A program made the translations under genes and the position numbers. Source: Perkinsela sp. CCAP 1560/9 (taxonomy: Eukaryota > Protista > Euglenozoa: Kinetoplastea). Taken from it: DNA of 64,000 nucleotides. Position 1 is the first letter of the stretch, and each line of letters opens with the position of its first letter. The notes under the pieces were generated by a model that saw nothing but the letters and a program-made list of their open reading frames with translations, was not told the origin of the DNA and did no database searches. The stretch is from NCBI GenBank assembly GCA_965644495.1, contig CBFFSA010000003.1:1269959-1333958 (forward strand). The letters run 5' to 3'. This document shows, one piece after another, positions 5,840-63,324 of the stretch.

Positions 5840-5891
5840 TCAAAGACTCTTGCTGCTTGAAGCAGGGCCAGCCACCCGCGCCCGAAAACCC
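5817..5891 (-). promoter_or_regulatory. Putative -1 ribosomal frameshift signal
   Basis: G GGT TTT in the gag frame (5885-5891), 7-nt spacer, pseudoknot GGGTGG/CCACCC plus CTGGCC/GGCCAG. Confidence 0.75.
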
Positions 5892-29275: not shown

Positions 29276-32200
29276 TCATATCGCATAGTCTGTACCCCGT
29301 TTGTCCTTCTCAAGAAAGGATCTCAGCTGCGAATATACAACAGCTCCATTCAACTCTTGAAGACAGAGTTGAAACTCCATCTGCGTCTGTTTTCGAGGCA
29401 GGCAACAAGCGTCTGCTAGGGCGTTGAGAAGAGATTTCGTATTTTCGTGTAGAGACCCGCCTGACAGCACTGGCACGCACCGAAACGTTTCCTCTGATAT
29501 CAAACCCGAGCGAACATAGGTGTCTTGTTTACGTTTGATCGCGTCGCGAAAAAGTTTGCCACATTTTGTTCCGAGATTAGAGGGCGCTAACTCGTGAATC
29601 ACGGTGAAATCATAGAATATCTCGCCGGAATTCCAAAAAACTACAAGATCGGGACCCGATCTGCGGAAAGAACGGCCTCCGCAAACTTTTCCATGCGTCC
29701 GTCTGTAATCAGGATCCACTTTTTCGTTGCATTGTGTGCACGAAAACGTTGCGAAATTACGCGGCTCTTTTTCGCAGGGAATCCCAGCTTTTAAACACAA
29801 CTCGTAGAGAAAATTTACTAAAGAGTTATGCTTCGCTGTGGCGTTGAGACCGGGGCATTTCGAACAGCCAGGTATGTGCGCGAGCATGGCTTTCGAATCT
29901 AGCAGAATCCGGCACCCGGGGCAGAGCAACTGTTTTGGCAGTAGAGGATGCGCGATTCCGAGTCGCGGCATTAAAGCAAGCGAAAAAAGGCGCGAGGGAA
30001 CAAACTTAGCATTAGACATGACCCATTCTGCGTTGCCCCTATATGAGACTGCTTGTAAGATGGCAACCGAGTCTGACTTCGAAGAAGACAAAAGGTCCCA
30101 CGCTTTCGTGTGAAGAGCTGCCGCCGCCGTATCTTCGTCGATAGGAACGCTAGTGTCGGTTGTTGCTGTTGGCACGCTGGTGTCGGTGTCGGACTGCAAA
30201 ATGGCGTGCGTCTGGTCTCCTTGGTGTTCGACTTGAGCTGAAAGATTAATTGGGCGCTCGAAAACTGAATACCAAGAGGACTCAAAGGCTGCACACCGAA
30301 TTGGGAGACAAGCCGTCAGGCCCAGCCCGCCTTTCTTAACCGGTAAACGTAACTGAGTTATCTGATCCTGAGATAGCGTTCCAAACCACGAATTCAACGC
30401 CTCTTCTACCTCGTGATCGAATAGTTTAGCTAGATTTTCGGAGACTATGGGGTGGTGTACTCTCAACTGGTAGTTCTGACGTACATTCACGCATTTGGAC
30501 AACAATTGTGCCGACGTGTTGTTGATACCCATCTGCTTCAGACGTCGAAAAATTTCATAATGTTTTTGCAAAGATTTCACCAGCTCTTCGCTGACCTTAC
30601 TTTCTTCGCCGATGAAAGCACCCAGTACCTTTATCGTACAGTCTGCTTTTTTTACCTCTGCACTGCTGAGTTCTTGCGGCATTGGAATGTTCCCCGTCCC
30701 TCCAAACCACATGCATTTGTTTGTTGAAACAATCAGGCTGCAGTCTTGCAATAGGGATTGGAGGCGTGTGAAAGCTTTTGTTAAAAGCTGCGGGTCGTCG
30801 GAAACAAGGTTGATATCGTCTATGTACGCGCAGATTTCAACTCCAGGAAATTCTTCAGCAAGATTTTCTAATATTGGCTGCAACAGAGCGCAAAAATAAA
30901 TGGTGGATAGCGTTGAGCCTTGACGGACGCCACTAGTGCTTTTCACTATGCCGGTCAAACGGTTTGTCTTAGCGCCGTAGAAAAGTAATTCGGAAGCTTC
31001 AGCATACTCCGCGTGGAAAAACCGGCTAGGGGGGACCTTCGATGAATCTTCATCGAAAGTTGTACACTTTCGATGAATCTTCATCGAAGGTGTTTTTGAC
31101 TTTTTTTGACTTTTTTAACTTTTTGTTTTTGAACGAATTTTTCCATTGGCTGTTGAAAACACGTTGCATGAAACATATAATTTCATTTTAAATTCAATAA
31201 TTTTTTGTTTTTTTGTCTGAATTCTGACTTTCCGTTTTCTTTCACATTTTGGCTTGGGGGTACGTTCGTTGATTTCTCAACGAACGTACCCTGTGACCGT
31301 AAAAAATCTGCAGGACCTTAGAGGGAGGAGGAAGAAAGGCCCAACTGATAACTACTTGATAATCTTGATAATCTTGACCAACTACCTTGATAACAAATTT
31401 TAGTACCCATTCGTGGGAAGCAATTTGCGAAGCCCAACTACCTTGATAACAAATTTTAGTACCCATTTTGGCCGCGCGGGGGCCCCCGCGTGAGCGGGGG
31501 TGCGCGCGGCCGCGAAACGGCGAGGGCCCGCGTGAGCGGGCCTGAGCCGTACCCCGCGTAAGGTTCCCCTGTGCGTCGTTAGTGGGAAGCAATTTGCGAA
31601 GCTCACTGAATTTCGTAGTTTTCGCTACGCAGGCGTTGTCAACGTATATAGCGAAGTGTAGGATACTGAACGCACGGAAAATGAAAATCAAAAAAAAATT
31701 CTTGGATGTTCCACAAAAGTCCTTGACTTATGCAAAAGTCCTTGATTTCCACCGTGAATTTCCGTTCGTTGAGTACTCAACGAAAATCCGGCACTTCGTT
31801 GAGTACTCAACGAAAATCCTGTGTTTACCCCTTCCGCAGGATTGTCGCTCAAAATATGTATATGGATCAGTCAAAAACGCTTCGATGAAGATAAACTGAA
31901 GAAACGGTGAAATTCCTCTACGAGCCTTCACAAAACACTTCGATGAAGCACCAAAAAAGTCAAAATGTCTATATGGATCCGCGAAAAACGTTTGCGTGAA
32001 GATTTGAAAAAATAAAAAAAAAGTCAAAAACACCTTCGATGAAGATTCGTCGAAAGTGTACAACTTTCAATGTGCTTCATCGAAAGTTGTACACTTTCGA
32101 TGAAGCTTCATCGAAGGTCCCCCCTACCCGAAAAACCTTTGAAACGGTCGGAGAGTAGCTAGTCCAAAAACATGTTTGGCGATAAGATTCCGCGACGGGG

Positions 32201-35200
32201 TATTGAACGCATTTTTTAGGTCGATGGCTAAGATGCACGCGCCTTTTCTGTATCGTTCATTTAAGGTGTGTACAATGCGCTCACTCCCCGATTTTGAAAG
32301 CACACCTTGCTGCATTGGTGCGAAAAGGGGTTGAATCGTGGATTCGTATCGCTGAACGAGAATGTTGCCGGCAAGCTTCACCAGCACCTCACCGATGGCC
32401 ACGGGGCGGATACCACCTCCTGTTTTCTGAATCGCTACTAGACGTGATCTTGCCAAACGTTTCATCAGATCTCGCGGAAGAAAACCGTTGATTAGATCCA
32501 TGAGCATGTGGCAAAGGTTTGGGCTGCACACTGGGTCATCAATAAGGAGACGCACGACGCTGTCTGTAGTGCCTGTCGGACCTGGGCTAGCTCCTCTTAC
32601 TAAACGCATCCCTGCTGACCGAAGCTCAGAAGAATCCAAACCAGTAAGAAGAGGCGCATCATTTGGTAGGTTAAACTTGTATTCGTGTTGCGGATGTAAA
32701 TCCTTCAGCCTATCTAGAATCTGATCATCCGACAGAGTGTTTGGGATGAATTTCTGATCAAGAGTTTTGCATGCCTTTCTCGCGCATCCTTCCATGACTA
32801 AACGCGTTGCCTTTTTTATTGCTCTTTTATCCGCTTCGTGCTCATCAGACTTGGTTGGATGATCGCCAGATGTTTCGCTATCGGCTTCGAATGGGCGGCG
32901 GCGTCTTCGGCGATTGGAGGCTTGACGCACTATTGCTAGGGAATATTTCATCGCTGAGAGAACTTCGTGCCAGATTTTGTGCCTTTGTGGATAAGTACTG
33001 TTGATGTATTCACGCATTATTTCTCGGTAAGACGCGATTACAGCGGATATCATTTCCGGTTTTATGACGCGAGATGTTGGAATGGGCACGTAATCCAAGT
33101 CCTTTGACTTCCAACCTTCCTTCGAGTTACTCATGCTTTGCTCGGCCGACTGCCCAAACATGTATTCCCCTTGCGATTGACCGTCGTTTGGATCAATGGG
33201 CGTAGAGGCTGTACACGGGGGTGCTGCAGCATGCCATATCATCCCGTTAACCCTCACACTTTCGTGGGGCGGTAGTGTCCCAGTGAATTCCTCACCAATT
33301 TTATGCCCTACGATCCCCGAGTAGATTATGTTCAGCTTCCAAGAACCTTTCCTACGATACACGCTGGTTACTTTCCCAAGTGAGATGTTGGTGTCATCTC
33401 GATTCCCGAAAGACCACGCGACCGAACATAGCGTTCCTTTTTTGATATGTTGAGACTTCGATTGGATATCGCTTGCTTGTAGAGGAAAGCCTCGTGTAGC
33501 GAATTGGGACGACAGTGTGTCACACATCTCTGCCGAATTCGCATTCTCTACGAACCGAATTCTATCTAGCGCGGAGTTCAACACATTCCCCATTTCAGAC
33601 AAAGTTGTACCACCAGAATTTTCGTCAGGCGCTGGAAGAGGACTGGGAAGTTCCGATTGTACGGGGTTCCCATCACTAATCGTACCGTATGACTTGTGAG
33701 GTTGCGGAGAGGAGAACACAGAATTTACCGATCGAGCTGAATGATTGGTTTGTCGCTCAGAAGCGGTAGAGTCTGTCCCCCCTGCATCCTGCAGATAGTC
33801 TTGCAGATCAGGGCTCTGACCTACGATGGACGCAATCCCGTTGTCCGTACGTTCCTCTACGAACACTTCATTTTTATTATGGAATGCAGACGCAACATTG
33901 GATAAGGGTGATGCGTTCGTGTCCTCATTAGGCCTTTCTTTCGTCTGATTCGCGTCAAAAGGCGTCATAAACGCGATGTCCGGGGCATCTGGCCTCATGT
34001 CCGGGGCATCTGGCGTTTTTGGAGTCAAGAATATGCCCGTACTCTCATCTGGCGGCGTGATAGTTCCGGTGGGCGTGTAGACTGCGGTGGGGTCCGCCTC
34101 GTCGAGCGCATCGGAGAATGGGTCGAAACTGTAAACGTCATAAACATAACCGTTTCCTACCCATTTGTATCCTTTAAATTTCGGATCTTTTGGGTCAGTG
34201 CACTGGGGATTTCGATCTTCCGACAGACCTCCTTCAGCTTCGGGGATGTTTTTATCCATGTTGTCCGAGTCTGTACCTTCTAGTTCATCACTTTTCTTTT
34301 CTGTTAGCTTCTTTGTTGGGGATTTTGAATTTACGAACTTAACTTTTATTTGACGCACCGGTGTAGACGTTGGATTTTTCTCAACTGGAGTGCAAGACGT
34401 ATCCCTTGTTACCTCCCCCTGATCGTTCCAATTGGCATCATTCTTGCTCTGACTGATTCTTTTTTTTGCTCCTTCCTTGACTTGTAGCTCTTCCGGTGAT
34501 GCATTCTGACCGCGGTTTGAAAGTTCAGGTAGGGCTATGTTTGGCTGACTGTTTGCGATCGATGCTATGGCCGAAACAGCTGCCCCGCAGGTTTTAGCAG
34601 CCGCGCAACACGACTTCGCAATAATGGAACTCCACCCGTTTTCATTGTGCGGCGTTAACTTGTATCCTTCGGGTCGACGAATGCGAATTAATGAACTGAT
34701 TTTTCCTTGCCTCGTAGCGTTCGCTTCCTGGTCTTTTCTTTCCTTTACTTTTCTTTCTTCTTCTTCAATTTGTTTCTTCAACTGGTAAAAGGACATTCGA
34801 AAACCTTTTTTTGCATTCTTTTTCACGGTTGGCGGGGTACCCGGACGAGTGAGCGATGTATCTACGGGTGTGCGCGGGGGAGGTGTGCATGTTAAATGGT
34901 CCGGCCGTTGCGGGGGTGGCGATTGTTGCGGTGCTGGAAGAAAGAGCATTTGTTGCGGTGGTGGCGGCGTTTGTTGCGGTGGTGGTGGTGTTCGTTGCTG
35001 CAGCCGTTTCGGGAGTGGCGATTGTTGCGGTGGTTTTTGTGGTGGACGTTGCTGTGTTCGCGCCGATGGCTGCAGTGGTGGCTGTGGTGGTGGTGATCGT
35101 TGCTGCGGCGGTGGTGGCGATCGTTGTGGTAGCGGTTGTGGCGATGGCGGCGGCAGTGGCGTTCCCGCGGTCAGTTTCTTCTTCCGGCGTGTGGGTGGAA

Positions 35201-35261
35201 GCGACTGGACGACGGGAGCTACCCCCGTCTCCTTCGCCTTGGCACGCGTCAGCATGCCCAT
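29276..35261 (-). mobile_element. CRE/SLACS-like element B; one ~1.6-kaa ORF split by a MITE
   Basis: Pro/Gln-rich N-terminus, RGASPGPTG, IRPVAIGE, IDLKNAFN, GVRQGS, YIDD, RLE; the two halves join as QRFFHAEY. Confidence 0.9.
31024..32129. mobile_element. Non-autonomous DNA transposon (MITE); GG termini and 8-bp TSD (Merlin-, MULE- or hAT-like)
   Basis: TIRs GG(C/G)TAGGGGGGACCTTCGATGAA; TSD GAAAAACC at 31016-31023 and 32130-32137; another right end lies near 47820-47869. Confidence 0.85.
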
Positions 35262-36173: not shown

Positions 36174-36288
36174 GCAATTAATAGGGGGGGAGAAGTATGA
36201 ATCGCGGCATTGCCACTATATTTTGACCCATTAGACGAACCAAGTAAGTCCATTGGGGGGGGGGGTATATGATTTTAAAACAAGCAAT
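36174..36288 (-). repeat. ~120-bp CRE 3'-terminal unit followed by poly(A)
   Basis: Also at 41369-41483, 56750-56880, 57115-57236, 62524-62635 and 63155-63276. Confidence 0.85.
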
Positions 36289-36304: not shown

Positions 36305-36978
36305 AGAAATCAACGGACCCTTTATCCTGGCCATAAACTTCGTAAAAGAAAGTAAGCAAAGAAATCAATATTTCCCATGTAGAAGATTTATCCGGCTATA
36401 CACATTTACTTTGCAATAAGTATTACAAGTATCACACGTAGCAGAAGTATCACAAAATAGAGCTCTTAGAACCTAGCAATCACTTCCTATATGTAACTTA
36501 CGAACGGGCATTATGCCCACCACGTCGCGAAATGGTTGGGGGTTGGGTGGGTGGGTACGTTTTTGATGTTTTAAAGGAGGAAATGTCACTAATATATATT
36601 TCATAATTACATTCTGTCCCTGGTATACAAATAAATAGTTTAGACCCATTTCGGGGTGGAATTTGAAGACATAGTTTAGACCCCTTTCGGGGCACCATAT
36701 ACATATCAACGCACAATATAAAGTCTCCTAAATTTCATATCGTAAACTTATAGAAATCAACGGACCCTTTATCCTGGCCATAAACTTCGTAAAAGAAAGT
36801 AAGCAAAGAAATCAATATTTCCCATGTAGAAGATTTATCCGGCTATACACATTTACTTTGCAATAAGTATTACAAGTATCACACGTAGCAGAAGTATCAC
36901 AAAATAGAGCTCTTAGAACCTAGCAATCACTTCCTATATGTAACTTACGAACGGGCATTATGCCCACCACGTCGCGAA
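36305..36978 (-). repeat. 3' split direct repeats B1-A2-B2
   Basis: B (227 bp) twice; A (196 bp) matches 41173-41368. Confidence 0.93.
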
Positions 36979-37377: not shown

Positions 37378-40188
37378 TCAGTGTCTGTCTAAACGACTTA
37401 CAGGATCTGCCGGGTTGTGCTCGGAGCGGATATACTGCGCCTTGATGCAGATGCCTGCTAGCTGATTCATTTCTAAAACTTTCTTTAACTCCTTTGCTAT
37501 ATTGTCGGAGTTAGCAACCCGTCGGTTAATAGCGCCTTGGCAGGATGTGTTATCAATGAACAGATCTAAACACGTTCCTTTTTGAAAATGATGTCCGAAA
37601 TCCCTCATGGCATTAGTAACGGCCATGGCTTCGGCATGGTTAACTTCATAGCAAAATTCTCTTGGCCAAGAATCCCCTGTAATATGAACTTGTCCATCAT
37701 CAAGATAAAGTACCGCACCCCATCCCTTGCCAGAGGCATCCGTGTAGAGACTATGTTTATGGGGCACAACATCCGGGTGCGGTGGGGGCTCGATCGGCGT
37801 ATTCGTCAAAAGTTCATCTCTCCAAGATGCCAAAATGCACCGCGTATGTTTCGGGAGGGGAACCGGGTCATCCGCGAGGTGTAAATTACGATTGAGTAGA
37901 TTGATTCTGCGTCTCGCTATCTTGAGTGTGAAGTGAAAACGAGGAATAACGTAACCGAGTACCGCTGAAGCGTAGAGGAGACGCCCCACCGCCGTCTCCA
38001 ATTGGGCATATGTGATTGTACCGAATCGATCGCGCTTCAGTTTGGCTAGTACACGGGGTCCCAGGCTAACCCTATGTACTGTGTGATCGTATTTAACTCC
38101 ATTAAATACGTACTGTGTCTCCGGGGGAGATCCGTCCTCCTTGAATAGGCCATTGGCTGCCTTGCATCGCGAATCAATTTTTTGCGCATATTCGCTGGCC
38201 TGTTGTTCATTCGCTGCATATCGAACCCCGTCGACGTACACGTCGATGCCACTGTCGGCAAACGTAGCTCCCGGCTTACATACCGCCGGATCTCCGGCCA
38301 AAACAGAAGTTATAACCTGCATGATTTCCGGGGCACATCGATGCCCCATAGGCATAACCTTCATTTGGTAGAGATTACCATCTCCACCGCGAAATCGAAA
38401 CTTCGCACGGACCTTCGTTGGAACCGGGACTTGGTAAAATCCACACTTCAGGTCCCTTTTAACCCCGACCTCCGCTTCAGCGCGATGCAAATATTTGGAA
38501 GGGTGGAGGAGAGGTACGGCTGGTTTGTAGTCCTTAAGGCGCTCATTATCGTCGAGCGTCCATGAAATAAATCTGCGTCGGAATTGTCCTCCCTCATCCG
38601 CTTCGACTACTGTGAAGGGAACGAGATACTGTATGGTCGGCGCCTTTTGCGCCGCGTCCTGGGTTACTCTTTCAATTACATTGGCCTCTAATAATTCAGT
38701 AATATCAGAGGGTAGCAGGTTTCCCTTGATTGGGGGCTGCGGTTGAGGGGAAATTCGAGTGCAAAATAATTTGTTGAGAACCTCGTTAAAACGATACCGC
38801 GTGTCGTGACGCATCCATTCTTTGAGTTTATCTAGGTCCATACTTGGAATTCCGCTCTTCACATGCAAAGGGTAATGCATATCTTTAGCCTGTGCCAAAC
38901 GAGACGACCGTCGAGCACATAGTATACTATATCGTTTAACATGGGGCACCTGTTCGAGGCATTTATCAACCTCCTTTTGGGTTATTGGAGCGGTAGGAGG
39001 GCCGAAGCTCGATGCGTACCAAGGGCCTTCGCCGTCGTGACCAAGTCGGCGTTGTACCGTAAGAGGGAGTTTATGCTCTGATGCTTTGCGATAGTTTGCA
39101 CGTCGGCGATTGTTGCCTTTCCTAGAGCGATTTCCCGGAATAGGTGTGTCACTGCCCCCCTTTTTATTGAGTGAGTCCCGAAATTCTGTCCCAGAATCTT
39201 GCGTATTGCACGGTCCATCTCGTGTACTGTTGTGATACTTATCCTTTGACCTGCTATCATACTGCCCACGTATCGAGCTATTTCCGGAGTTCCTTGACCG
39301 CGTATTGTCGTACACATGGAGATTCGATATGGGTTTAGCCTTGTCGTCTTCGTGTTCCTTCCCCAGTACACGATTACTTCCTCTGGATTGTACTTGACGA
39401 ATCGGTCCTTGGTGAGGTCCGCGACTTCGGTCCACCGAGCGACAGCCTTCCAACATATGAGCACCGCCATTGAGTCTCTTGGTCTCAGGACGGATCTGAG
39501 CTTTTGAATGTGCCATGGTGTTGCTGGTGTCATTTGTCTGGTTGGCTCTAATGCTCCCCTGGCCTGTAGTGCTTTTGCGTAAAGCTGTAGTGGACCCGTG
39601 GGCATCTTGGCGAGATTGAAAATTGCTTGAAGACTCCTGGTGTATGCGAGAATGGTCGCCGGTGCGAGGTGCAATTGATTTAGAAATACGACGGCGTTGA
39701 TTGGTTCGATGCCGAGCATTTCTGCCGTGCAAAAGCTGGCGAGGCGGTCCCACAGACGACTGCGTGTCATCCACGTGGTGGTCGTCCACATTGGTTCGAT
39801 TGCGCGCCACACCCGTTCCACTATCGCGCTTTGCTGATGTATGTTTAGCATTGTACATGTTAATTTTCGCTTTGCGAATGCTTCCTTGTGTTCTGGTTTT
39901 GGAGCGTGGGGTACGGGCTTGGGACGCTTTTGAGGTAATTGTTTTGTGAACCCCTGAGGAGGGAACGCAACACTTGCATGTGATGGAACTATAAGCTTGG
40001 ATAAAGGCGAAGAAATGCTTGATAAGTTCACCCGCCGCTTTTTCAGCGGACGGGCACGAGCGAGTCCTGGTGTATTCACCCCGCGCTTGAGCAGCGGTAG
40101 GGCACGAGCGATGTAAGGGGTGGGGGGCCTTCCCTATTGGCCCCGCTTCGCACCAGCGGTGCCGCCCGTCACCCCCAAACGAAAACCC
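37378..40188 (-). CDS. Pol (linker overlapping YR, then RT and RNase H), probably reached by -1 frameshift
   Basis: KRDLKCGFYQ, MPMGH, YVDG, YTDASGKGWG, NPADPVSR; frame is open from the slippery site. Confidence 0.9.
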   Translation of the reverse strand, partial: GFSFGGDGRHRWCEAGPIGKAPHPLHRSCPTAAQARGEYTRTRSCPSAEKAAGELIKHFFAFIQAYSSITCKCCVPSSGVHKTITSKASQARTPRSKTRTQGSIRKAKINMYNAKHTSAKRDSGTGVARNRTNVDDHHVDDTQSSVGPPRQLLHGRNARHRTNQRRRISKSIAPRTGDHSRIHQESSSNFQSRQDAHGSTTALRKSTTGQGSIRANQTNDTSNTMAHSKAQIRPETKRLNGGAHMLEGCRSVDRSRGPHQGPIRQVQSRGSNRVLGKEHEDDKAKPISNLHVYDNTRSRNSGNSSIRGQYDSRSKDKYHNSTRDGPCNTQDSGTEFRDSLNKKGGSDTPIPGNRSRKGNNRRRANYRKASEHKLPLTVQRRLGHDGEGPWYASSFGPPTAPITQKEVDKCLEQVPHVKRYSILCARRSSRLAQAKDMHYPLHVKSGIPSMDLDKLKEWMRHDTRYRFNEVLNKLFCTRISPQPQPPIKGNLLPSDITELLEANVIERVTQDAAQKAPTIQYLVPFTVVEADEGGQFRRRFISWTLDDNERLKDYKPAVPLLHPSKYLHRAEAEVGVKRDLKCGFYQVPVPTKVRAKFRFRGGDGNLYQMKVMPMGHRCAPEIMQVITSVLAGDPAVCKPGATFADSGIDVYVDGVRYAANEQQASEYAQKIDSRCKAANGLFKEDGSPPETQYVFNGVKYDHTVHRVSLGPRVLAKLKRDRFGTITYAQLETAVGRLLYASAVLGYVIPRFHFTLKIARRRINLLNRNLHLADDPVPLPKHTRCILASWRDELLTNTPIEPPPHPDVVPHKHSLYTDASGKGWGAVLYLDDGQVHITGDSWPREFCYEVNHAEAMAVTNAMRDFGHHFQKGTCLDLFIDNTSCQGAINRRVANSDNIAKELKKVLEMNQLAGICIKAQYIRSEHNPADPVSRLDRH
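38982..40133 (-). CDS. Tyrosine recombinase (same frame as gag, after its stop; start uncertain)
   Basis: AVARW, NTKT, THSIKRG, AKH, LLRY. Confidence 0.88.
   Translation of the reverse strand, partial: GRPPTPYIARALPLLKRGVNTPGLARARPLKKRRVNLSSISSPLSKLIVPSHASVAFPPQGFTKQLPQKRPKPVPHAPKPEHKEAFAKRKLTCTMLNIHQQSAIVERVWRAIEPMWTTTTWMTRSRLWDRLASFCTAEMLGIEPINAVVFLNQLHLAPATILAYTRSLQAIFNLAKMPTGPLQLYAKALQARGALEPTRQMTPATPWHIQKLRSVLRPRDSMAVLICWKAVARWTEVADLTKDRFVKYNPEEVIVYWGRNTKTTRLNPYRISMCTTIRGQGTPEIARYVGSMIAGQRISITTVHEMDRAIRKILGQNFGTHSIKRGAVTHLFREIALGKATIADVQTIAKHQSINSLLRYNADLVTTAKALGTHRASALLPLQ
40104..40188 (-). promoter_or_regulatory. Putative -1 frameshift signal
   Basis: G GGT TTT (40182-40188), 6-nt spacer, pseudoknot GGGGTG/CACCCC plus ACGGGC/GCTCGT. 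Confidence 0.75.
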
Positions 40189-41168
40189 GAAGTGTTTGTA
40201 CGTTGTACCGGCTGATTGAGGATAGGACACTGTGCACGGAAATGACCGGGCTTATGGCACTTATAACATAGTAAACCGGGTTTAGTCATCTTAGTGGTGC
40301 GCAACTGGCGAAGTTTCTCATCTGCGACAACCTTGGAATATGCATCTTTGGTTTCGTCCTCTTTGTGCAGCTTTAACTGCAAGTTTTCAATAGGAATACC
40401 CTGGGAGGACCAGTAGTGGTTTCGAAGCTCCTCTATAGCTGTTTGGACGATCGCCAAGAAGTGTTCTTCGCGCCACATAGGGAACACACGGGCTGCATAC
40501 ACCCACTCCTGGATTATCTTAAACAGCCGCTCTCGTATCGGGGGCGAGTTGAACAACAAACCAAATTCCGGCGCGGCTCGAAGATCGCGAATGAGGTCAC
40601 GTACACGGAGTTCATCTTCGGATTCCAGCCAAGGACCCCACGTCAAAGGCTCGTAGGTGGTGAATTTCGCTGGGTCGGTGATAATCTTGGATGTGGGCGG
40701 AGTCTCGTCAGTCTTCCTACCCCCGGGCATAACCGCACGGACGCTGGTAATTTCTAACGAAAAATAGTTAATGTCCGGAAAGGGGAAATCGTAAGCCATA
40801 CCCGGCTCGTCGGCCCATTTGGCTTCCAAATTTCCTGATCCATCCCCTTTGAGAGCAATCACGCCGATAACTGTTTGACGGTGTGTTTCGCCGATATGCC
40901 CCCATACCGCCTCAACAGAAACTTCATATCCCCGCTCAAGGAGGGACTTTACTTTAGCCGCAAATTGCAGCTTAACTTCCTCTGTCATGGCTTCCGCGCC
41001 ATCGCCGCCGCGAAGCAAGGCCGCCACCTGCTCCGGGTTTAGCGTGTGTCGCTGCTCTCCGGTTTGCTGGAAGGTTGGACTGACAGGTTCATGCGGGTCA
41101 CGAGGAGGTGGACTATCCTGCCGGCCCATGGAGAGTGTTCGGCGCACGGTATTTAAAATACCTGCCAT
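40134..41168 (-). CDS. Gag-like protein with CCHC knuckle
   Basis: CYKCHKPGHFRAQC; ATG lies just after repeat A1. Confidence 0.9.
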   Translation of the reverse strand: MAGILNTVRRTLSMGRQDSPPPRDPHEPVSPTFQQTGEQRHTLNPEQVAALLRGGDGAEAMTEEVKLQFAAKVKSLLERGYEVSVEAVWGHIGETHRQTVIGVIALKGDGSGNLEAKWADEPGMAYDFPFPDINYFSLEITSVRAVMPGGRKTDETPPTSKIITDPAKFTTYEPLTWGPWLESEDELRVRDLIRDLRAAPEFGLLFNSPPIRERLFKIIQEWVYAARVFPMWREEHFLAIVQTAIEELRNHYWSSQGIPIENLQLKLHKEDETKDAYSKVVADEKLRQLRTTKMTKPGLLCYKCHKPGHFRAQCPILNQPVQRTNTSGFRLGVTGGTAGAKRGQ

Positions 41169-41475
41169 GAAAACGTTTTTGATGTTTTAAAGGAGGAAAT
41201 GTCACTAATATATATTTCATAATTACATTCTGTCCCTGGTATACAAATAAATAGTTTAGACCCATTTCGGGGTGGAATTTGAAGACATAGTTTAGACCCC
41301 TTTCGGGGCACCATATACATATCAACGCACAATATAAAGTCTCCTAAATTTCATATCGTAAACTTATATAAGGGGGGAGAAGTATGAATCGCGGCATTGC
41401 CTCTATATTTTGACCCAGTAGACGAACCAAGTAGGTCCATTGGGGGGGTATACGAGTTGAAAACAAGCAATCAAA

Positions 41476-41730
41476 TTAGCAATCTCGGAGCTGTGCGTAT
41501 ACTTCGGATCCGTTCAGCTCTTGGAGTAGCAACTTGAATGCCTGTTCGGTTTTTTGGGTATCCAACAGGCAGACATCCGTCAGTGATTTAATTAGGCCCC
41601 GTGTGCTCTTATGTAAAGACCCGCAGGACAAGACAGGAAGGCACTCAAAAGCTTCCGCCGGAATCATGCCACTATTGACGTATGTTTCATTTTTCCGCTG
41701 TATAGCTTCTCGCACGAGTTGTTTTTTGAA
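41476..41730 (-). pseudogene. CRE 3' RLE fragment
   Basis: REAIQRKNETYV...LQELNGSEVYAQL. Confidence 0.75.
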
Positions 41731-41736
41731 CACCTC

Positions 41737-42594
41737 TTGTTTTTTGAAGACCTTTGTTTTTTTGAAGACCTTTGTTTTTTTGAAGACCTTTGTTTTTTTG
41801 AAGACCTTTGTTTTTTTGAAGACCTTTGTTTTTTTGAAGACCTTTGTTTTTTTGAAGACCTTTGTTTTTTTGAAGACCTTTGTTTTTTTGAAGACCTTTG
41901 TTTTTTTGAAGACCTTTGTTTTTTTGAAGACCTTTGTTTTTTTGAAGACCTTTGTTTTTTGAAGACCTTTGTTTTTTTGAAGACCTTTGTTTTTTTGAAG
42001 ACCTTTGTTTTTTTGAAGACCTTTGTTTTTTTGAAGACCTTTGTTTTTTTGAAGACCTTTGTTTTTTTGAAGACCTTTGTTTTTTTGAAGACCTTTGTTT
42101 TTTTGAAGACCTTTGTTTTTTTGAAGACCTTTGTTTTTTTGAAGACCTTTGTTTTTTTGAAGACCTTTGTTTTTTTGAAGACCTTTGTTTTTTTGAAGAC
42201 CTTTGTTTTTTTGAAGACCTTTGTTTTTTTGAAGACCTTTGTTTTTTTGAAGACCTTTGTTTTTTTGAAGACCTTTGTTTTTTTGAAGACCTTTGTTTTT
42301 TTGAAGACCTTTGTTTTTTTGAAGACCTTTGTTTTTTTGAAGACCTTTGTTTTTTTGAAGACCTTTGTTTTTTTGAAGACCTTTGTTTTTTTGAAGACCT
42401 TTGTTTTTTTGAAGACCTTTGTTTTTTTGAAGACCTTTGTTTTTTTGAAGACCTTTGTTTTTTTGAAGACCTTTGTTTTTTTGAAGACCTTTGTGTTTTT
42501 GAAGACCCTTGTTTTTTTGAAGACCTTTGTTTTTTTGAAGACCTTTGTTTTTTTGAAGACCTTTGTTTTTTTTGAAGACCTTTGTTTTTTTTGA
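41737..42594. repeat. 18-bp tandem array (TTTTTTGAAGACCTTTGT), ~47 copies
   Basis: Near-perfect periodicity seen directly. Confidence 0.97.
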
Positions 42595-42609
42595 ATATTC
42601 TTCAAAATT

Positions 42610-45566
42610 ATGGCGAAGGCGTCCGGGCCTTGCGAGAAGAGTATAGTGAATCTTCTAGTACGGTCCACGTTAGGTCGGGGTGTCCTTTTTGAACCAACTT
42701 TGGATTTTGATGGACATGCTAAACTTCGCCTGCGTACTGTGATGAGAATATGTAAAATTCTTCGTCCTGGCGACTGCATCACGCTGTGCTGGCGATATGC
42801 GGGGGCTGCGAAGTATCGGGTTTGGAGGGGGGATGTTACACAGAGAGGTTATGGGTCTCTCTTTCAGCTAGGTCGCTGGCGGGTGAAATACTACCGGCGA
42901 TCGGAAACGCTTCCTTTCCCGCCGTATGACCCACGTATAGTGCTGTGTGGGGTGCGAATTCGGAAACCTCGACGTTCGAATACCCGAAAGAAAGTACGTA
43001 AAAATAGGGCACTGTGTGGCAAGCATGCTCTTCGCGACAACGACCCTGAAGGGTCTGCTGTGAGGAAGTATTTATCTATAGGAACTCTTAACACGACTTC
43101 GTTGAAACTTAAGGGCGACGACGTTTTCAGACTGAAAGCATCCTCCCGATTACATGAAACATTGCGATATATGGCTCAGAAAGATTTGCATGTTCTGGCT
43201 TTACAGGAAACAAGATTCTCTTTTACTTCTAGCGGTGGGTCTGACATTTTGCGCAGGCAACTACGGTACGGAGATAAACACTTTTTCATCTACCTTTTGT
43301 CGGCGGTGAATGGGTACAACGGTATGGGGTTTATCTCTCAGCATCCGTTTTTGAAGGTTTGGAAGGTGAGTGACAGGATCATGGGGGCCGAGTTTACTAT
43401 AGAAGGGGGGTCGGCCTTTATCATGAATGTATATGGGCCGACGCGCGATTCTTCACAAGATGCAATGGAAGAGTTTGACATTTCTCTCACCACTGCGTTT
43501 CATGACGCAGTTGGTAAATATTCACGACGGCCAGCTCTTCTCCTTGGAGATTTGAATGCACCGCTCACTTTTAAAAATAAGACAGAAGAGGACGCGCTAT
43601 CAATGGAAAGATTAGAAGGCCTTTTAGAAGGAATAAATTGTAAATCGGGGCACATCTTATGCCCAAGCCGCCGTAAATATACATGTATACTGCCGAACGA
43701 TGCTAAGCGACAGCTCGATCACATTGCAGTGTGTTCGCGCTTTGCGTCTGCCCTACATAAACATCAAGTTTTTGGCGCACCAACACCAACTGTACACTTT
43801 CTGGTGAGAGCCGAGATCAAGATCAAATGGAAAGTTTCCACAAATACCCACAGAAATAAGATTCCCTGGCTTCAACTTTCTAACCCAGAACATAGTGAAA
43901 AATTTAACAAACGAATCTGCGATCATGTCAAAGGCGAACTGCACAACAAGGATTTCCCTTCCTGGGATCTTCTTGCCTCTTGCCTTCGATCGTCTGGCAG
44001 GGAAATTCCGAAACCACAAAACAAAATATCTCTTGAAATCGATTCGCCAATGGAAACGCTCGAAGGAACCGAAACTGGTTATTTGCGCAGAATCTTTGAG
44101 CTAAGCAGAAAACACAAGGACTTCAATGAATTGGTTTTACAAACACAGGTGCCAATAGAGGAAGCAATAGCCAAATCATGTGATGTCCTGGAAAATAAAC
44201 TAAAGAAGAATCATGCCAGCCCATGGAGAGCTCTGAAAGAAATATGTGGAGTTCATCGCGCCGATTTTAAGATTTCAGGGACCTGTAATAAACAAAAGCT
44301 GGCGGAAATCAAATCATTCTTCGAAGCCTGTGCGGGAGACGCCGGGGGGGACACGAATATAAAATTTCCTGAGGCCAAACCATCCCCTAACACGATTAAC
44401 GACTCCACTTTTACGGAAGATGAGCTTCAAATTGGCATCTCACACTTTGGTAAAGGAAAATCGCCAGGAAAAGACGAAATCCCAATGGAAGCCTTGAAAT
44501 GCATAGCTGGTAAGTTGGCCAGGGGCGCTTCTAGTGTAAATCAGTAGTTTAGGCTGTTGGTTTAGAGTAGAAGCGTTGGGGCTTAGCGCACCTCGCCACC
44601 CGAGCTGCAAACTTCCATTGAAGCGATAAAATTACAAAACAAAATATATAAAGTCCATATTTCATCATCATAAAGAGAAAAAGAAAAAGAAAAAGAAAAT
44701 CTTAATGGATAGTTCTTGGATAGTTGGGTTGCTGTTCGTCTGTTGTAGGTGTAGATTTCTCTTCGTAAATTGAGAGAAGGGGGGAAGGTGAACATTTCTC
44801 ACATACAAGTGACTTGTCTGGTAACGAGTTACTTCGAGATTGGCTGCTATGTGTCATAAACAGAGTTCACGATACCGGGATGGCTCCGGATGTTTGGGGT
44901 GATGTCTTACAAGTTCCTATACCAAAAAAGGGTGATTTGAGTCTTCTTAAGAACTGGCGACCTATTTGCTTAGTGAATTGCATCGTCAAACTAATGAACA
45001 GTTTAATCTTGCAACGAATGAGACCTTATGTGGAGCCCGTGCTTCGCGAGAATCAATATGGGTTTCGACCAGATCGCTCAACAACTCAAGCCCAGGCGAT
45101 TCTCAACGAAGCAAGAGTTAAAGCTTTGCGGGAAAATGGGCTCAACATTGGTTTCGTGGATTTTGCAAAGGCTTTTCCATCTGTTTCGTTTGATGCTATC
45201 AGGGCATCTCTGGTAGCATTCCACATTGGCCCCAAGTTAGTAGAAATGATTATGTCGGTCTATCGCAATATGAGAGGCGTCGTTCGTACACCGTATGGGC
45301 TAACGGAAGCTTTCCCCATCACGACAGGAATTCTACAGGGCGACGTTCTCGCACCGTACCTCTTTGTTATGGTCCTGGATCGAATATTATTTAAGGCAAT
45401 AGATTCAAAACCCCACGGCATCTTATTATCATCCAAGGGTACGAGGAGCAGAGGGTTACGGGAAACGCGGCTCACTGATCTGAATTATGCTGACGATTTG
45501 CTCCTATTTGGGAGCGACAAGGAAGACTTGCAAAGCATGATGGAAGATACAGCAGAGCAAGCCCTC
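42610..45566 (+). pseudogene. APE-RT LINE (Ingi/RTE-like), interrupted and 3'-truncated
   Basis: IGTLN, LQETRF, NVYGPT, GDLNA, LDHI; RT motifs PKKGD, NWRPI, QYGFR, DFAKAF, QGDVLAP, YADD; ~310-bp insert near 44514-44818 flanked by CTGGTAA. Confidence 0.9.
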
Positions 45567-45788
45567 ATAGTTTACGGAGAGAATTGGGCGAATAAATTAT
45601 TTACGTTATACCAGTTTATCTATTGTGTGATGGCCGAGGGGCATTGTACCTGTTGTGAGAATTCAACTGATTTGATATATACACCCCCCAGATGTAACCC
45701 CATGTGTATACAGACGAATATGACGTTTGCTATGGTGATTATAAATTCAAGACTGTATTTCCTTTGTTAATTCGCGACAGTTAAAGTT

Positions 45789-45824
45789 CTTTAACGATAA
45801 AGATACAGTTTCTGTACCTTGTTG
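45789..45824 (+). other. Spliced-leader exon (retroposed)
   Basis: ACAGTTTCTGTAC...TTG core as in kinetoplastid/diplonemid SL; not followed by a GT intron. Confidence 0.85.
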
Positions 45825-45865: not shown

Positions 45866-46991
45866 ATGACCGTGGTTGACGCTCCTTCAACGCGAGCTTT
45901 ACGGTCGTCGCGTAGTTCTTCCCCTACTGCTGAGTCGCTCGTGCCTACCGAGACGCTCACGCAGCAGGAATTAAGTCTCGTTTGTACGGTGGCCAGAGAG
46001 CGATTATTTGTGAAACCCTCGGTGCAGGTGCAGGCATCTTTCCGTCGCAAGGATGATCGTAATGGTGCTCGACAAACGTTGATGGGCAAGTTGCGCAAGG
46101 AAGGTCTTGACTTATGGGGGGTGTGGGAAGATAAGCCGTCTAAGGAGTACCCCTTTCCTCACCCGGATTTGGACTATTTTGAGATTAACATTATTGAGGA
46201 TCGCGAGGTGCCGTCATCAGTTGCTAATTCGCAAGTCCCTATTTCTGAGCCAGTGGGATCGTCTGGGGAACTGCCAAGTAGCGCCCAAGAAATGGCGGGG
46301 GAGACAGATTGAGGGACCCTCCTTGACGCTTCCGGAGGCCCCACAGGAGGGCAAGCCCAGGCTCCTTGACCCCAACGCATTGAACCCTTATGAACCGATA
46401 ACCTTTGAACCGTGGATTAATGCGTTAGACGACGACGGATTCCGTACCAGAGATTTGATTCGCGAGCTGAGAGAGGCCCCGGAATTTGGTTTGCATGGTA
46501 ACCGATTTTATTATGATCGGAGCTTCGTTAAGCAGCAGGAACGTGTGTTCAATTCGATTTTTTGCAAGTGGATTGTTTTTGCTCGGTTGATACCAAATTG
46601 GAATCAAGGGGTCTATCTCGAGATGGGACGCGGAATAATTCAAACCCTTCGGGATGCTTACTGGCGGGCGCGCCGAGTTGACGTTGATCTCGTCCACCAG
46701 AAAATGGAGAAAGATGTACGCCCAGAGGACAAATTTTATCATCATGTGAGCGATCAGTTAGTCGAACGACAAAAACTGTACGCCCGAGTCCAATCGTTTT
46801 CTACTTCAGGAACGCAAGTTTCACGCCCAAATCCAGTACCTTTTCGTCAGACCGGACCTCTTCAGCGACGAAATTTGTTGTGTTTCGGTTGCCGGTCACC
46901 AGAACATATCTGGCGCAATTGTCCCAAGCGCTTTAATCAGGATTTTCGCTCGCGGGTGGCTGGCCCTGCCGCAGGCAGCAAGAGTTTATGA
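45866..46991 (+). pseudogene. Gag (frameshift near 46300)
   Basis: Two ORFs jointly colinear with 40134-41168; CFGCRSPEHIWRNC. Confidence 0.85.
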
Positions 46992-47014
46992 CTAATCTCC
47001 ACCCAAACGGCCAG
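46940..47014 (+). promoter_or_regulatory. Putative -1 frameshift signal with TGA-CTA readthrough context
   Basis: G GAT TTT, 7-nt spacer, same pseudoknot as copy 1. Confidence 0.75.
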
Positions 47015-47759
47015 TACTATAATTACATTCAAACGAAAACAAACAAGCCTTTTTACGCAAGCCCCGAAGCGGAGGAGAGTGGAATGCAATTTGGTTGTGA
47101 AGGATGTTCAGAACTTAAGCGGGAGGTGCGTGCAATCCGAGAGTATTTACGGCGGAACTTTGAGTCTACAGCAGGCGTGTCCAGCACGCTTCAAATTGGT
47201 GAAATTGTTAATGGGGGTGTCCACACTGACACCGGAAATACGAAACGCATTGGATGCCATGGGAGAGATGTGGAGCACAACAACGTGGCAAGCGAGGGCT
47301 CGCTTGTGGGAAAGACTGACAATGTTTTGTCAGTGGAGGGGAATAGAGGTCACCCCAATTCACGCGGTCGCATTTATCGCAAGTTTGCCAATTCGAATCC
47401 AAGCAAAGTTAACGTACGCACGCAGCCTTGCATCAATTCTCAACCTGGCAGGGCAAGTGGTGAATCCTCTGCGCTTCTACGTAAAATCATTGATGGCCGA
47501 GGGGGCGACGGAGCCGCTACGCCAGATGACCCCATTGACTCTGACCGATCTAAATCAACTGTGGCTCCATCTACCGGACAGCGAAAGACATACCTTGCTA
47601 CTTTGTTGGAAGGCAGCAAGTCGGTGGTCAGAGACGGCAATGTTGACCCGAGACAAGTTTCACGAGATATCGCCTACCAGGATAGTGATTTGGTGGGGGC
47701 GCCACACAAAAACGTCTCGCTTCAATCCTTACCGCCCGTCAATGTATACGGTAGTGGAA
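46992..47759 (+). pseudogene. YR N-terminal part (continues at 52866-53189)
   Basis: AASRW, HTKT; then THSAKRG, AKH, LLRY after the insertion. Confidence 0.85.
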
Positions 47760-48226
47760 AAGTGGTCTTAAAAAAAAACGCGTAAAGGAAAAAGATTCTA
47801 CAAGTAAGTAAAAATAAAAAAGGTCAAAAACACCTTCGATGAAGCTTCATCGAAGGTCCCCACTACCCAACATCATCTGGTATTTTTATCTTATGTGCCG
47901 TCATTACTGTTTTTTTTGTATTATCTTGTGTGCTTTTGGCCCGATTTCCGGAGTAACTTCAAAGATTCAGCATTGTAGACTTCCTACCCAATGTTCTTGG
48001 GCCATATATATAAACTTTTAGAACTTGATAAAATTGATAACCATTGCACATACTCAGTTTCACTTTTTATCTATCTTTATCACCAATGTCTGTCCTAAGA
48101 TGTTGCAACGTCTTGAGATTAAAACCAAATCATCATCTGGCATTTTAGCTTATGTGCCGTCATCACTGTTTTTTTGTGTGTTATCTTGTGTGCTTTTGGC
48201 ACGATTTCCGGAGTAACTTCAAAGAT

Positions 48227-51200
48227 TCAGCATTGCAGACTTCCTACCCAATGTTCTTGGGCCATATATTGCCGCAGTTGCGAGAAGATAGTGTATGCGG
48301 AGAATTTTTCAATTTCCAATTGGAATGCTTCTCGAGTGTTTTCTACGACTAGGCCTGCCCTATTTGCCAGTGTCTTGAGGAGTTCCTTAGTTTCCTTGTG
48401 AAGAAGACCACAATCTGTTACTGGTATGCAGCGAAAGTATTCTTGGTCCAATCCTTTTTCCTGCACATATTTCCGTTGCTTACGGTCTACCGCATTTTGG
48501 AGGAGGGCAACGCTTGTCTGCCGCTTGTAGCTCCCACAACAAGTGTGCACCACTGTCACATCGTAGAGTATCTCCCCAACATTTGGCCACATTATGGCCA
48601 GATCAGGGCCTGAACGAATTCTCCGAGCACGACAAGGATGATGTTCTGCAGCTTCAGGTGAAATGGAACATTTGCACTTCGTGCAGAAGAAGGAAGAATG
48701 AAGGCGTGGTTCTATAGCGCAGGGTACTCCAGCTTTGGCACAAAGATCGGAAAGGTAGCGCACGATGTGGGAGTGCTTTCTCGTACAGTTCATCCCTGCA
48801 CATCTTGAACACCCAGCTACATGTGAAATGATTCCATGTGGTGTTTCCGTGGCGCCGCATCCTGGACAAGTAATTTCATTCGGCGCACCTTGGAGTGCGA
48901 TACCAAGCCGCATCATGAGTGTATATCGGAAGAGATACGGATTCACGTAATTATTTGTCGCTGCCAAGTGGAGATTTGCTTCTTTTGATCGCTTCATAAT
49001 GCCCGCAAATCTATCCTTTTGCATCAGTTCTGAAGCCAGTGTTTCATGTTCTAACTTAATCTGCTTTTTGAAATCAGTACGTGCAGCTTGGCTGGAAATT
49101 TTCTTGTGGTTGGCACCTTTCCGCTCTCCCGTGATATCTACTGGAGCGTTAGTGGGTTTAAGTTGCTCATCAATAGATTTACGGGAAATCGCAAAAAGAT
49201 AGCGTTGCTTCAATATCGTCGATGTTATGCCTAAGCCGCCCATCTTACATGGTAGAGAAGCTAGTCGGAGGGCTTCATCATCTGCATTGCACCATCGTCT
49301 CAACACTTTGTGGATTTCTTTATCAAATACCTCAGCGAGGGAAAACGTTGCCTCTGGAACGTGCACTCTAAGATGATAATCGTGACGTGGAAGAGTACAC
49401 CGACGCAGGATTGCTAGCGACAGGTTACTTGGCCCCATCACCCGTAGACGACGAAAAAGGCATTCATGTTTACTCAGCTTTTCAATCAGTTTATGTTCCA
49501 CAACTTTCGCACTTCCTATGTATCCACCTAACACTTTGATGGACTGTTCGCATGTTGTGACGCCAAGCTCCTTGAGGTTGGTTTTATTTAATACTTCGTT
49601 TGTGTTTCGGAACCACTCGCATTTTCCGTAGTTTATATGTAAATTCAAATCCTGGGTAAGTTCACGTAAATGATGAAAAGCTGCCTCCAGTGACTTTACA
49701 TTCTTTGAGCTCATTGTAACGTCGTCTTGGTACGCTCGAATTTTTACTTCGGGATAATTTTTGGAGACCTCCTTCAACGGTTGTTGCAGGAGAGAGCAAA
49801 AATAGAGCGATGAAAGTGCTGATCCCTGTCTTACTCCTGAAGAACTTTCTATAATCGAGTGTAATGCATTATTGGCGAAGAAAAGGAGTTCGGAAGGCTG
49901 GCCATATTCTAGATAAAAAAGCCGCATGAAGTGTTTAAAGATCGGCTCCTTAAGCAGTGATTTCGCTATTTCCGTACGATGTGGCGTATTATAAGCATTC
50001 TTGAAATCAACTGTGAGTATAGTGTATCCGTCTTTTCGTTCCTCTAACAACTCATGCACTATTGACTCACAGGCTCTTTCTTGTAGAATACCCCGTTGGA
50101 TTGGCTGGAAAAGGGTTTTGAGGGAGCTTTCGTGTCTGTTTAAGAGAATCGAACCGCATATTTTTAGAATTGTGTCGCCCATTGCAACTGGTCGTATGCC
50201 GTTTTGCGGCTTTGCTAGAGCAATTATTCTGCAGCGTGTCAGTCGTTTACGTACGCTTTCTGCCACATCACCATTTATGACGTCACGAAACATGTGGCAA
50301 AGCGCTAGGCAGGATTCCTCATCTTCCACTAAAAGTCGCATCATGCTTTCGCTGAAGCCTGTTGGTCCCGGCGCTGCTCCTCGAGATAGCTTTTCTGTTG
50401 CCACCCGAAGCTCTGATTGCTCAACTACCCCAATTCGTGGAAAATCTTCTTCTAAACGTTTGGGGGTGGGTCCTGTAGGATGGAGCTCTTTCAACTTGAA
50501 AACTTTCTCATGCGGTTCTAGAGATGACTCTCGGTATACATATTCACAGCTGAGTCGATACCTTCGCAAGGAGGACAAAAGTCGGGAATATGCCTTCTAA
50601 AGCACGGAACAATGCGCCTTCGCCAGTGCACTGATTTCAATTCGCTGAGAATCTAACGCTGAGAATCTAAGAACATATAATATAATAATGAAAAAAAAAA
50701 AAAACTATAAAAGTTTACGAAAAAAAATCATCGGTGCGTACCCAAAAGCCAAGACAGAATTAGAAAAATCCATCATTCGGCACAAGCTTTTAAATGCACC
50801 CAGAGACTCCTTGGCCACGATTCGGAAAAGCTGAGCGGTGCTACGTCCAACATTTGATTGCGATAGCTCGTGGACGATGGTGAAATCGTAGTATACATCT
50901 CCGCTTGCCCAATGAATCACGATATCTGGGCCCGAATGATAAAAAGATCCGGATCCGCAGGTTCTTTGGTGATTTTTTTTTTTTTTTTTAATTCGGGGGG
51001 AGATTTGTTTCGGGGGGAAAACCCCCGGTAGGGGGCATCCTGAATAATGAGGTCCCATCTCCTTTGATCAATTCTTATCGTAAACTTTAAGAGCCTTGAC
51101 GAACACCTGCATTGCTCTTTTTTTTTCGGTTTTCAGAAAAATCATATTATATTTCGGGGACAATAATTCGTATATATGCATTTGGGGATTTAATCCTTTT

Positions 51201-52786: not shown

Positions 52787-52863
52787 GTTTAAGTAATCTC
52801 AATGAAAAAAAACAACAACAAGGTACAACAAGGTACAGAAAGTACCTTAGTAAAAGTTAGTTT

Positions 52864-56908: not shown

Positions 56909-57242
56909 TATTAAGACCACTTTTTGTATTAAGACCACTTTTTGTATTAAGACCACTTTTTGTATTAAGACAAAAAAAAAAAAAAAAAAAACTTTTTTTT
57001 GGAACGCGCGGATGGATTGGGCGTGGATTGCTTCCTTTTTTATTATTATTGTTATCAGAATCATAAATAACTTAAGGCAGGTTGAATTACTAGTTTTGGG
57101 CTACAACATGTGAAATTGCTAATTTGATGGCTTGTTTACAAATCATATACCCCCCCCAATGGACCTTCATGGTTCATGTATTGGGTAATATAGAGGCAAT
57201 GCCGCGTTTCATACTTCTCCCCCCTTATTAATCGCAAAAAAA

Positions 57243-63294: not shown

Positions 63295-63324
63295 ATATAT
63301 TCTATTTTTTTTTTTTTTTTTTTT

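Follow-up and report, generated by a model that had tools for sequence, protein, structure and literature searches.

How three proteins can be made from one RNA when the second gene lies in phase behind the stop codon of the first and the third overlaps the second in the −1 frame is the question raised by a retrotransposon in the DNA of Perkinsela sp. CCAP 1560/9 (contig CBFFSA010000003.1, positions 1,269,959 to 1,333,958, forward strand; this whole stretch of 64,000 nucleotides [nt] is called the window, and positions are counted from its first letter). The genes are gag, a tyrosine recombinase (YR) gene and pol, which encodes reverse transcriptase (RT) and RNase H. By gene order, repeats and catalytic residues this element, copy A, is a VIPER-like tyrosine-recombinase retrotransposon of the order DIRS. 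Two further elements, copies B and C, are decayed members of a single family, approximately 72% identical to each other, so that the window holds two independent families and not three. A −1 frameshift at the end of gag very likely yields Gag-Pol, since the slippery site, the stop and the in-frame YR occur in published copies too. YR is probably translated from the same RNA by ribosomes arriving in the gag frame, and our best single guess, held tentatively, is that they read through the gag stop rather than reinitiate.

A slippery heptamer and predicted stem structures at the end of gag

The features of the three junctions are as follows.

40182 to 40188, minus strand: slippery heptamer G_GGU_UUU of copy A, 15 codons upstream of the stop and in phase with gag (read from the sequence)
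40163 to 40176, minus strand: 5′ arms of predicted stems S1 (40176-40170) and S2 (40169-40163), copy A
40150 to 40162, minus strand: predicted hairpin S3 of 5 bp, copy A; also in copies B and C with a different sequence
40134 to 40136, minus strand: gag stop TAG of copy A, in the YR frame, context CAA TAG GGA AGG
40124 to 40144, minus strand: predicted hairpin S4, whose loop holds the gag stop, present only in copy A
40104 to 40122, minus strand: 3′ arms of predicted stems S1 (40122-40116) and S2 (40110-40104), copy A; frame 0 there encodes PTP.IA
5817 to 5891, minus strand: junction of copy B, with heptamer, predicted S1 to S3 and TGA at 5842-5840
46940 to 47014, plus strand: junction of copy C, with heptamer, predicted S1 to S3 and TGA at 46989-46991

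Three heptamers stand in gag phase over the whole of copy A, and the one at 40182-40188 alone falls in the overlap of the gag and pol frames. Heptamers in gag phase were likewise found in copy B (G_GGU_UUU, 5891-5885) and copy C (G_GAU_UUU, 46940-46946), the distance to the stop being 14 to 15 codons across the copies. A heptamer of the form X_XXY_YYZ, a spacer of 5 to 9 nt and a downstream structure make up −1 frameshift signals, in which GGU and GGA variants work (PMC3542737; this and the other papers cited were covered in part). In all three copies two predicted crossing stems, S1 and S2, begin 5 to 7 nt past the heptamer, and the interval that separates their 5′ arms from their 3′ arms holds both S3 and the gag stop; from the heptamer to the end of S2 the distance is 85 nt in copy A and 75 nt in copies B and C. 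The sequences of S1, S2 and S3 differ between copy A and copies B and C, with order and pairing retained, and an automatic alignment failed to bring the 3′ arms of copy A into register with those of the other two.

A crossing S1/S2 pair was matched in 15, 1 and 0 of 500 dinucleotide shuffles, in windows chosen after the structure had been seen. In a sister subfamily the five listed differences within the element (40112, 40113, 40145, 40149, and 40156) all fell on bases predicted to be unpaired (chance 0.005), a count that covers these five and leaves aside approximately three further differences on the same contig. The 31-mer at 40114-40144, which comprises the stop and the 3′ arm of S1, is a node common to diverged subfamilies in the run contigs.

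Between copies B and C base conservation was highest 5′ of the stop (13, 13, and 12 of 15 bases) and reached 14 of 15 bases at +15 to +30, over the pairing arms. An earlier note on this DNA had remarked on a similar peptide after the stop (PTLTAS and STQTAS), with the caveat that constraint from an overlapping −1-frame protein might account for it. The similarity is present, but it overlies the predicted 3′ arms and is better explained by these than by a protein signal: because the 3′ arms of S1 and S2 encode a peptide of the PTP.IA type, no protein constraint is needed. The −1-frame protein as its cause was ruled out by the base-level conservation at the arms, which fits RNA pairing better.

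Open frames behind the gag stop

The reading frames of copy A that meet at the junction are as follows.

40134 to 41168, minus strand: gag-like open reading frame (ORF) 1, 344 amino acids plus TAG, with tblastn homology to gag of copies B and C
38982 to 40133, minus strand: YR ORF, 383 codons, recognized by motifs; Pfam Phage_integrase E value 0.009, below cut-off
39852 to 40133, minus strand: frame-0 linker, 94 codons with no stop and no AUG
37378 to 40251, minus strand: pol ORF of 957 codons in the −1 frame, comprising a spacer of about 400 codons over all of YR, followed by RT and RNase H

The stop-free frame of 383 codons (40133-38982) follows the TAG of copy A directly; gag of copy B ends in CTT TGA AAC (stop 5842-5840, minus strand) and that of copy C in TTA TGA CTA (stop 46989-46991, plus strand). 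These contexts, and a YR in the gag frame behind a single stop, had been claimed for all three copies and were confirmed in each, and frame 0 was stop free through the linker in copies A, B, and C, again as claimed. The statement that no ATG is conserved near the stop also held, the first in-frame ATG standing at codon 95 in copy A, 17 in copy B, and 74 in copy C.

The −1 frame was open from before the stop in all three copies (ORFs 40251-37378, 5912-4749, and 46937-47785). Over the YR core it contained no stops, versus 11.8, 6.6, and 7.8 expected from synonymous resampling (copies A, B, and C), and it remained open over this core in 0, 4, and 0 of 5,000 resamples. In the YR core 110 of 180 third positions differed between copies B and C, and only 57 of 180 −1-frame residues were common to both. 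A −1 frame that stays open without protein constraint would be kept as a spacer and would need entry from upstream. In copy C an AUGA opens the pol frame, but we discarded it as a way into Pol, because any TGA makes NTG in that frame and heptamers are found in all copies.

Frame 0 of the linker is only modestly more open than chance suggests. It was open in 768, 555, and 498 of 5,000 resamples that kept the −1 protein, which is modestly unlikely per copy, and in 62 of 4,930, 30 of 3,648, and 9 of 2,177 base shuffles in which the −1 frame was open. At codons 51 to 74, upstream of the first AUG of copy C, the differences between copies B and C showed a frame-0 third-position bias (9, 4, and 13 of 24 at positions 1, 2, and 3; Fisher P = 0.015). 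In 10 aligned close relatives the sole invariant Met was that of an MW at the start of the YR core, and a conserved hydrophobic segment lay approximately 20 residues before it (helix 80-95 in a low-confidence model). P0020, a third member of the B/C family, has Leu where copies B and C share a Met, and the linkers of P0001 and P0003 are also without a frame-0 stop. Across junction and linker, sister subfamilies differed in length from copy A by multiples of three only (+3, −45, −3, and −3). UAA was the gag stop in none of the families read.

The linker of copy A contains an in-frame 48-nt tandem duplication (40111-40064 and 40063-40016, minus strand). A 36-nt hairpin segment within it (40063-40028) is nearly invariant among otherwise diverged subfamilies and could re-pair with the 3′ arm of S1 once the ribosome passes.

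Junctions of published VIPER and TATE copies

Junctions of 10 complete published VIPER copies, from Bodo, Crithidia, and Trypanosoma cruzi, were read by eye from supplement 10 of PMC6681497. All 10 had a canonical heptamer 7 to 14 codons before a TGA, with YR in frame behind it; one of them needs a 1-nt indel. VIPER of B. saltans has G_GGA_AAC 8 codons before TGA-AGT, followed by 121 open codons to an ATG, in agreement with the table coordinates 1236 and 1600. The three C. fasciculata copies have A_AAA_AAA (7 codons, TGA-ATC, ATG at 52; this is the copy that needs the indel, upstream, for the knuckle to be connected with gag), A_AAA_AAC (11 codons, TGA-ACC, ATG at 36), and G_GGA_AAC (14 codons, TGA-AGC, ATG at 8). 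In T. cruzi six of six copies have A_AAA_AAC 9 codons before TGA-ATG, and a 10-bp stem that starts 6 nt past the heptamer encloses the stop; the published table gives the end of ORF1 as 1341, the start of ORF2 as 1342 and the start of ORF3, in the −1 frame, as 1218 (PMC6681497). UGA-A was the stop context in most VIPER copies read. In that table of 15 elements many coordinates are off by one, many lengths are not multiples of three, and one T. theileri row repeats the numbers of another.

VIPER as described (PMC6681497) resembles copy A in gene order, YR/pol overlap, A1...B1-A2-B2 repeats and the CCHC knuckle; T. cruzi VIPER has an ATG right after the stop, whereas the window copies do not. 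TATE, the sister group, has the same gene order and repeats, with YR apparently joined to Gag: 3 of 12 table rows, B. saltans included, show gag and YR as a single ORF (PMC6681497). It differs from copy A in its much longer YR ORF, which does not follow a stop in the gag frame, and in a gag without a knuckle; in one C. mellificae TATE, read by eye, A_AAA_AAC_UAA is followed by a YR in the −1 frame.

In Diplonema papillatum, the gene models P0144, P0155, and P0156 join VIPER-like gag, YR, and RT into single annotated genes. They were not used as natural fusions; the joins are probably predicted introns, because the YR-RT join drops the catalytic Tyr. The second gag in P0156 ends in G-N-G-K-A-G-G-K, which would fit a slippery site just ahead of its stop.

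A spliced-leader-like exon 5′ of gag

Kinetoplastid mRNAs are normally monocistronic after trans-splicing. One exon that resembles a spliced leader (SL), and which we take to be the euglenozoan spliced leader, is joined to copy C.

45793 to 45824, plus strand: SL-like exon joined to the 5′ untranslated region (UTR) of copy C and lying 41 nt upstream of its gag ATG at 45866 (read from the sequence)

Three such exons occur in the window (45793, 57249, and 58586, all plus strand; 0 expected), with a partial one at 52841 (minus strand), and they precede three different elements, apparently retroposed capped RNAs. The same UTR start as at copy C also follows an AG at 45750-45751. Past the exon copy C runs collinear through the gag stop into YR, so it may represent a retroposed trans-spliced RNA that extended from the leader through the stop into YR. 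An Rfam scan gave nothing at gathering score and no SL family at an E value of ≤10. The exon at 45793 sits between two copies of a 39-nt UTR start and supplies the host leader sequence and one acceptor site.

Routes to YR

Readthrough of the gag stop is preferred because the linker is stop free and conserved YR residues precede any shared AUG. A single SL-capped RNA would then encode all three products: most ribosomes would stop at the gag stop and release Gag (344 amino acids), some would slip −1 at the heptamer and make Gag-spacer-RT/RNase H (approximately 1,260 amino acids), and some would pass the gag stop in frame and make Gag-YR (728 amino acids), a fusion that might carry the recombinase into the particle together with the cDNA. 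The predicted pseudoknot would act on the frameshift only; its 5′ arms lie upstream of the stop, for which reason it is presumably not itself a readthrough stimulator, and readthrough would rest on the local stop context or on a refolded 3′ segment. The three-way branch might work through two alternative folds. That one cassette of approximately 80 nt sets the ratio of Gag, Gag-YR, and Gag-Pol, as had been proposed, is borne out as far as there is an RNA element of 75 to 85 nt with a heptamer in gag phase in all three copies, but its readthrough arm stays conditional.

A series of observations weighs against the structure or against readthrough. An earlier test in which overlapping stems were not trimmed gave matches in 22, 32, and 12 of 300 shuffles, and nested-fold energies were no better than those of shuffles (z scores 0.21, 1.10, and −0.57). 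S1 and S2 abut without a loop 1, which is a non-standard H-type geometry, and alternative folds may form. The proximal linker was open by chance in 20 to 39% of synonymous resamples (1,007, 1,015, and 1,942 of 5,000), and codons 10 to 50 carried no frame signal between copies B and C (20, 20, and 21 differences in 41 codons at positions 1, 2, and 3). The in-frame YR of other families, present in all 10 copies read, is not independent support for readthrough: the gag-YR phase would be locked because any single linker indel would cut off Pol, and 6 of 15 table rows put YR in a frame other than that of gag (three of the four B. saltans rows, one C. fasciculata row, and both L. pyrrhocoris rows; PMC6681497). 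Gag-YR fusions with a knuckle numbered 0 among the best 150 of 685 YR homologs, and searches for longer proteins with such a fusion, which were weak searches, found none. A contig with a gag-like ORF and YR (P0041) was not used as fusion evidence. In Tca2, the in-frame UGA junction alone gave no readthrough in yeast (PMC2194720).

The stop contexts point the same way. Stop and following base vary among the copies (UAG-G, UGA-A, and UGA-C), and no fold 3′ of the stop was conserved in copies A, B, and C (z scores 0.04/1.10, −1.52/−0.07, and −0.42/0.42). The alphavirus (type II) context UGA-CUA and the gammaretrovirus (type III) context UAG-G, to which the earlier note had drawn attention, are indeed present in copies C and A, respectively, but the conserved 3′ structure was not found here, and motifs of types II and III are usually accompanied by one (PMC3542737). 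UGA-CUA/CGG occurred in 1 of 3 window copies (C) and in 0 of 5 published families read; the type II stem-loop approximately 8 nt past the stop was absent, copy C folding weakly. In copy A the sequence UAG-GGAAGG is followed by a possible stem at +12 to +57 that was no better than shuffles; UAG-G is kept in sister subfamilies.

An unlikely but serious alternative retains the frameshift for Gag-Pol and lets ribosomes terminate at the gag stop and reinitiate there or after it, at an AUG or a near-cognate start, to give free YR, with the conserved bases 5′ of the stop doubling as a tether. The TGA-ATG of six of six T. cruzi copies favors this route and weighs against readthrough, and two L. pyrrhocoris table rows place the YR start 4 nt ahead of the gag stop, an arrangement that suggests an AUGA overlap (PMC6681497). 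Gene callers begin P0001 and P0003 at linker codon 2, with GTG in a matching contig end; reinitiation signals sit upstream of the stop, where base conservation between copies B and C was strongest, and non-AUG codons are usable (PMC3542737). However, copies A and C have no frame-0 AUG within 74 to 95 codons, nor do three of four Bodo and Crithidia copies read within 36 to 121 codons, no near-cognate codon is common to the copies, and the upstream conservation is already accounted for by the predicted frameshift structure.

It is rather improbable that YR has its own mRNA, with SL added inside the end of gag or the linker, lineage-specific starts, and the frameshift as the only recoding event. 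The host does carry SL-like exons (3 copies), many YR homologs are called as stand-alone ORFs, and the linker of copy A has an AG preceded by 19 pyrimidines in 25 positions, 143 nt past the stop. The first ATG after this AG is out of frame, however, no comparable tract was found in copies B and C (best 14 to 15 of 25 pyrimidines), conserved residues precede any shared AUG, and the sole SL junction seen lies 5′ of gag. The pyrimidine-tract scan is a weak test, because the host acceptors seen are AT rich and not pyrimidine rich.

Two shifts, −1 at the heptamer and then back to frame 0 in the linker, or editing or hopping, would need no leaky stop, and neither frame is closed within the linker; in P0020, a damaged B/C relative, the −1-frame peptide continues into the YR frame. 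No second shift-prone site occurs in the copy A linker, P0020 is broken at its C end as well, and the product would be very rare, which makes this route very improbable. A reassigned host code in which TAG or TGA is read as an amino acid, as occurs in Blastocrithidia (PMC12153298), can be dismissed almost entirely, since 10 long window ORFs hold 87 TGG and end in TAG, TGA, or TAA and in copy A the intact pol closes with TGA and the intact YR with TAA, each where its domain ends (both partly circular, the ORFs being defined as stop free), and the same junction is found in standard-code trypanosomatids.

Relation to known recoding systems

Skipper of Dictyostelium also has its downstream ORF in frame behind the gag stop and combines that stop with a later frameshift; its two events would be in series, whereas those of copy A would be alternative exits within 45 nt. 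Tca2 of Candida likewise has the downstream ORF in frame behind the gag stop, but one bypass only (PMC2194720). With retroviral and long terminal repeat (LTR) gag-pol −1 signals and their three-stem pseudoknots, copy A shares heptamer, spacer, and a predicted downstream structure (PMC3542737). Unlike in those signals, its predicted stimulator spans the gag stop and has an extra hairpin between the 5′ and 3′ arms, and its −1 frame runs for approximately 400 codons as a spacer under another gene.

PMC6681497 describes three ORFs without a translation mechanism, and the part covered gave 0 text matches for readthrough, stop codon, or same frame. Neither readthrough nor programmed frameshifting is mentioned for VIPER in the covered parts of PMC6681497, PMC12278014, PMC5146736, PMC5814959, and PMC12440569, the 2006 VIPER paper being outside this scope. 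The frameshifting review PMC5009743 gave 0 matches for VIPER, DIRS, and Skipper in 300,000 of its 449,034 characters, and the part of PMC7192593 covered does not address translation of the DIRS-1 ORFs. Even with a reinitiated YR, a −1 shift into a spacer of 400 codons that underlies another gene appears to be undescribed, in a search that lay outside the 2006 VIPER paper and subscription reviews.

From the junctions compared, copy A is a new member of a known group and its junction is a real, conserved feature. It is possible, at somewhat less than even chance, that VIPER elements throughout the Euglenozoa use a 75- to 85-nt three-way branch of stop, slip, and readthrough on one trans-spliced mRNA. 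If so, this would be the first translation mechanism described for VIPER, and trypanosomatid ribosomes would have a recoding signal native to them, carried in the T. cruzi genome too; it would be unusual for an element to offer two alternative recoding exits within 45 nt. A YR retrotransposon would then express two overlapping enzymes from one RNA by a short conserved element of slippery site and spanned stop, from Bodo to T. cruzi.

Copy A as a complete VIPER-like element

Copy A is complete (41371-36305, minus strand) and runs in the order A1, gag, YR, pol, B1-A2-B2. Its remaining features are as follows.

41173 to 41371, minus strand: split direct repeat A1 at the 5′ end, 99% identical to 36557-36755
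36305 to 36978, minus strand: 3′ split direct repeats B1 (36978-36752), A2 (36755-36557) and B2 (36531-36305)
40224 to 40268, minus strand: CCHC zinc knuckle of gag; Pfam zf-CCHC E value 5.4e-4, 20.4 bits, just missing the cut-off of 20.8

Repeat identity was 100% for B1/B2 and 99% for A1/A2. The gene order gag-YR-RT/RNase H, the YR/pol overlap, the split repeats, the catalytic residues and the presence of RT with RNase H are those of a VIPER-like element, and a short YR, the CCHC knuckle in gag and a YR inside the start of ORF3 set it with VIPER and not TATE, as does a likeness by eye to YR and RT of T. cruzi. By motif reading all catalytic residues of YR are present (R232, K, H-x-x-R at 321-325, H351, and Y360), and three YR homologs share the N-terminal YR motif of T. 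cruzi. Fold matches of YR to Cre were weak (best E value 0.014, not significant), the AlphaFold model was of low confidence (pLDDT 50), and a PDB sequence search gave no match. In pol, Pfam RVT_1 (E value 2.5e-5) and RT_RNaseH (E value 5.6e-5) were both just below cut-off; the RT motif is YVDG in copy A versus WIDN in the T. cruzi copy. A profile search returned 685 YR homologs at an E value of ≤0.001, the named close ones being from Papus ankaliazontas and Diplonema papillatum. Locus searches of metagenome contigs and viral contigs found no relatives; four DNA runs of one study contained 79 to 95% of the words of copy A, and no RNA run was listed for it.

Other elements in the window

The window is a pile-up of eukaryotic mobile elements. 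In copy B gag is interrupted by a stop and YR by a frameshift, copy C has a frameshifted gag and is truncated at its 3′ end, and a fourth fragment (52866-54826) comprises the end of YR and pol only. ORFs of non-LTR retrotransposons, many of them nested or truncated, were recognized by eye at 23359-26478, 32124-35261, 48227-50596, 59484-62480, and 42595-45770, and include restriction-like endonuclease types and one endonuclease-RT type. Pogo-like ORFs were likewise seen at 2884-3951 and 17140-18696, and a 631-nt inverted repeat (98%) at 8230-9626 and 9907-11037 has a Tc1/mariner-like transposase ORF nearby. A tRNA search of the window found none. An array of approximately 46 copies of an 18-nt unit (41614-42600) has several frames open, with KKTKVF repeats. 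A repeat of 70 to 100 nt occurs in both orientations (36181-36261, 41368-41448, 56795-56906, 57150-57223, 62561-62634, and 63191-63295) and is very deep in the run contigs; two of its copies closely flank copy A, and it possibly represents the ends of a short non-autonomous element as well as an insertion target.

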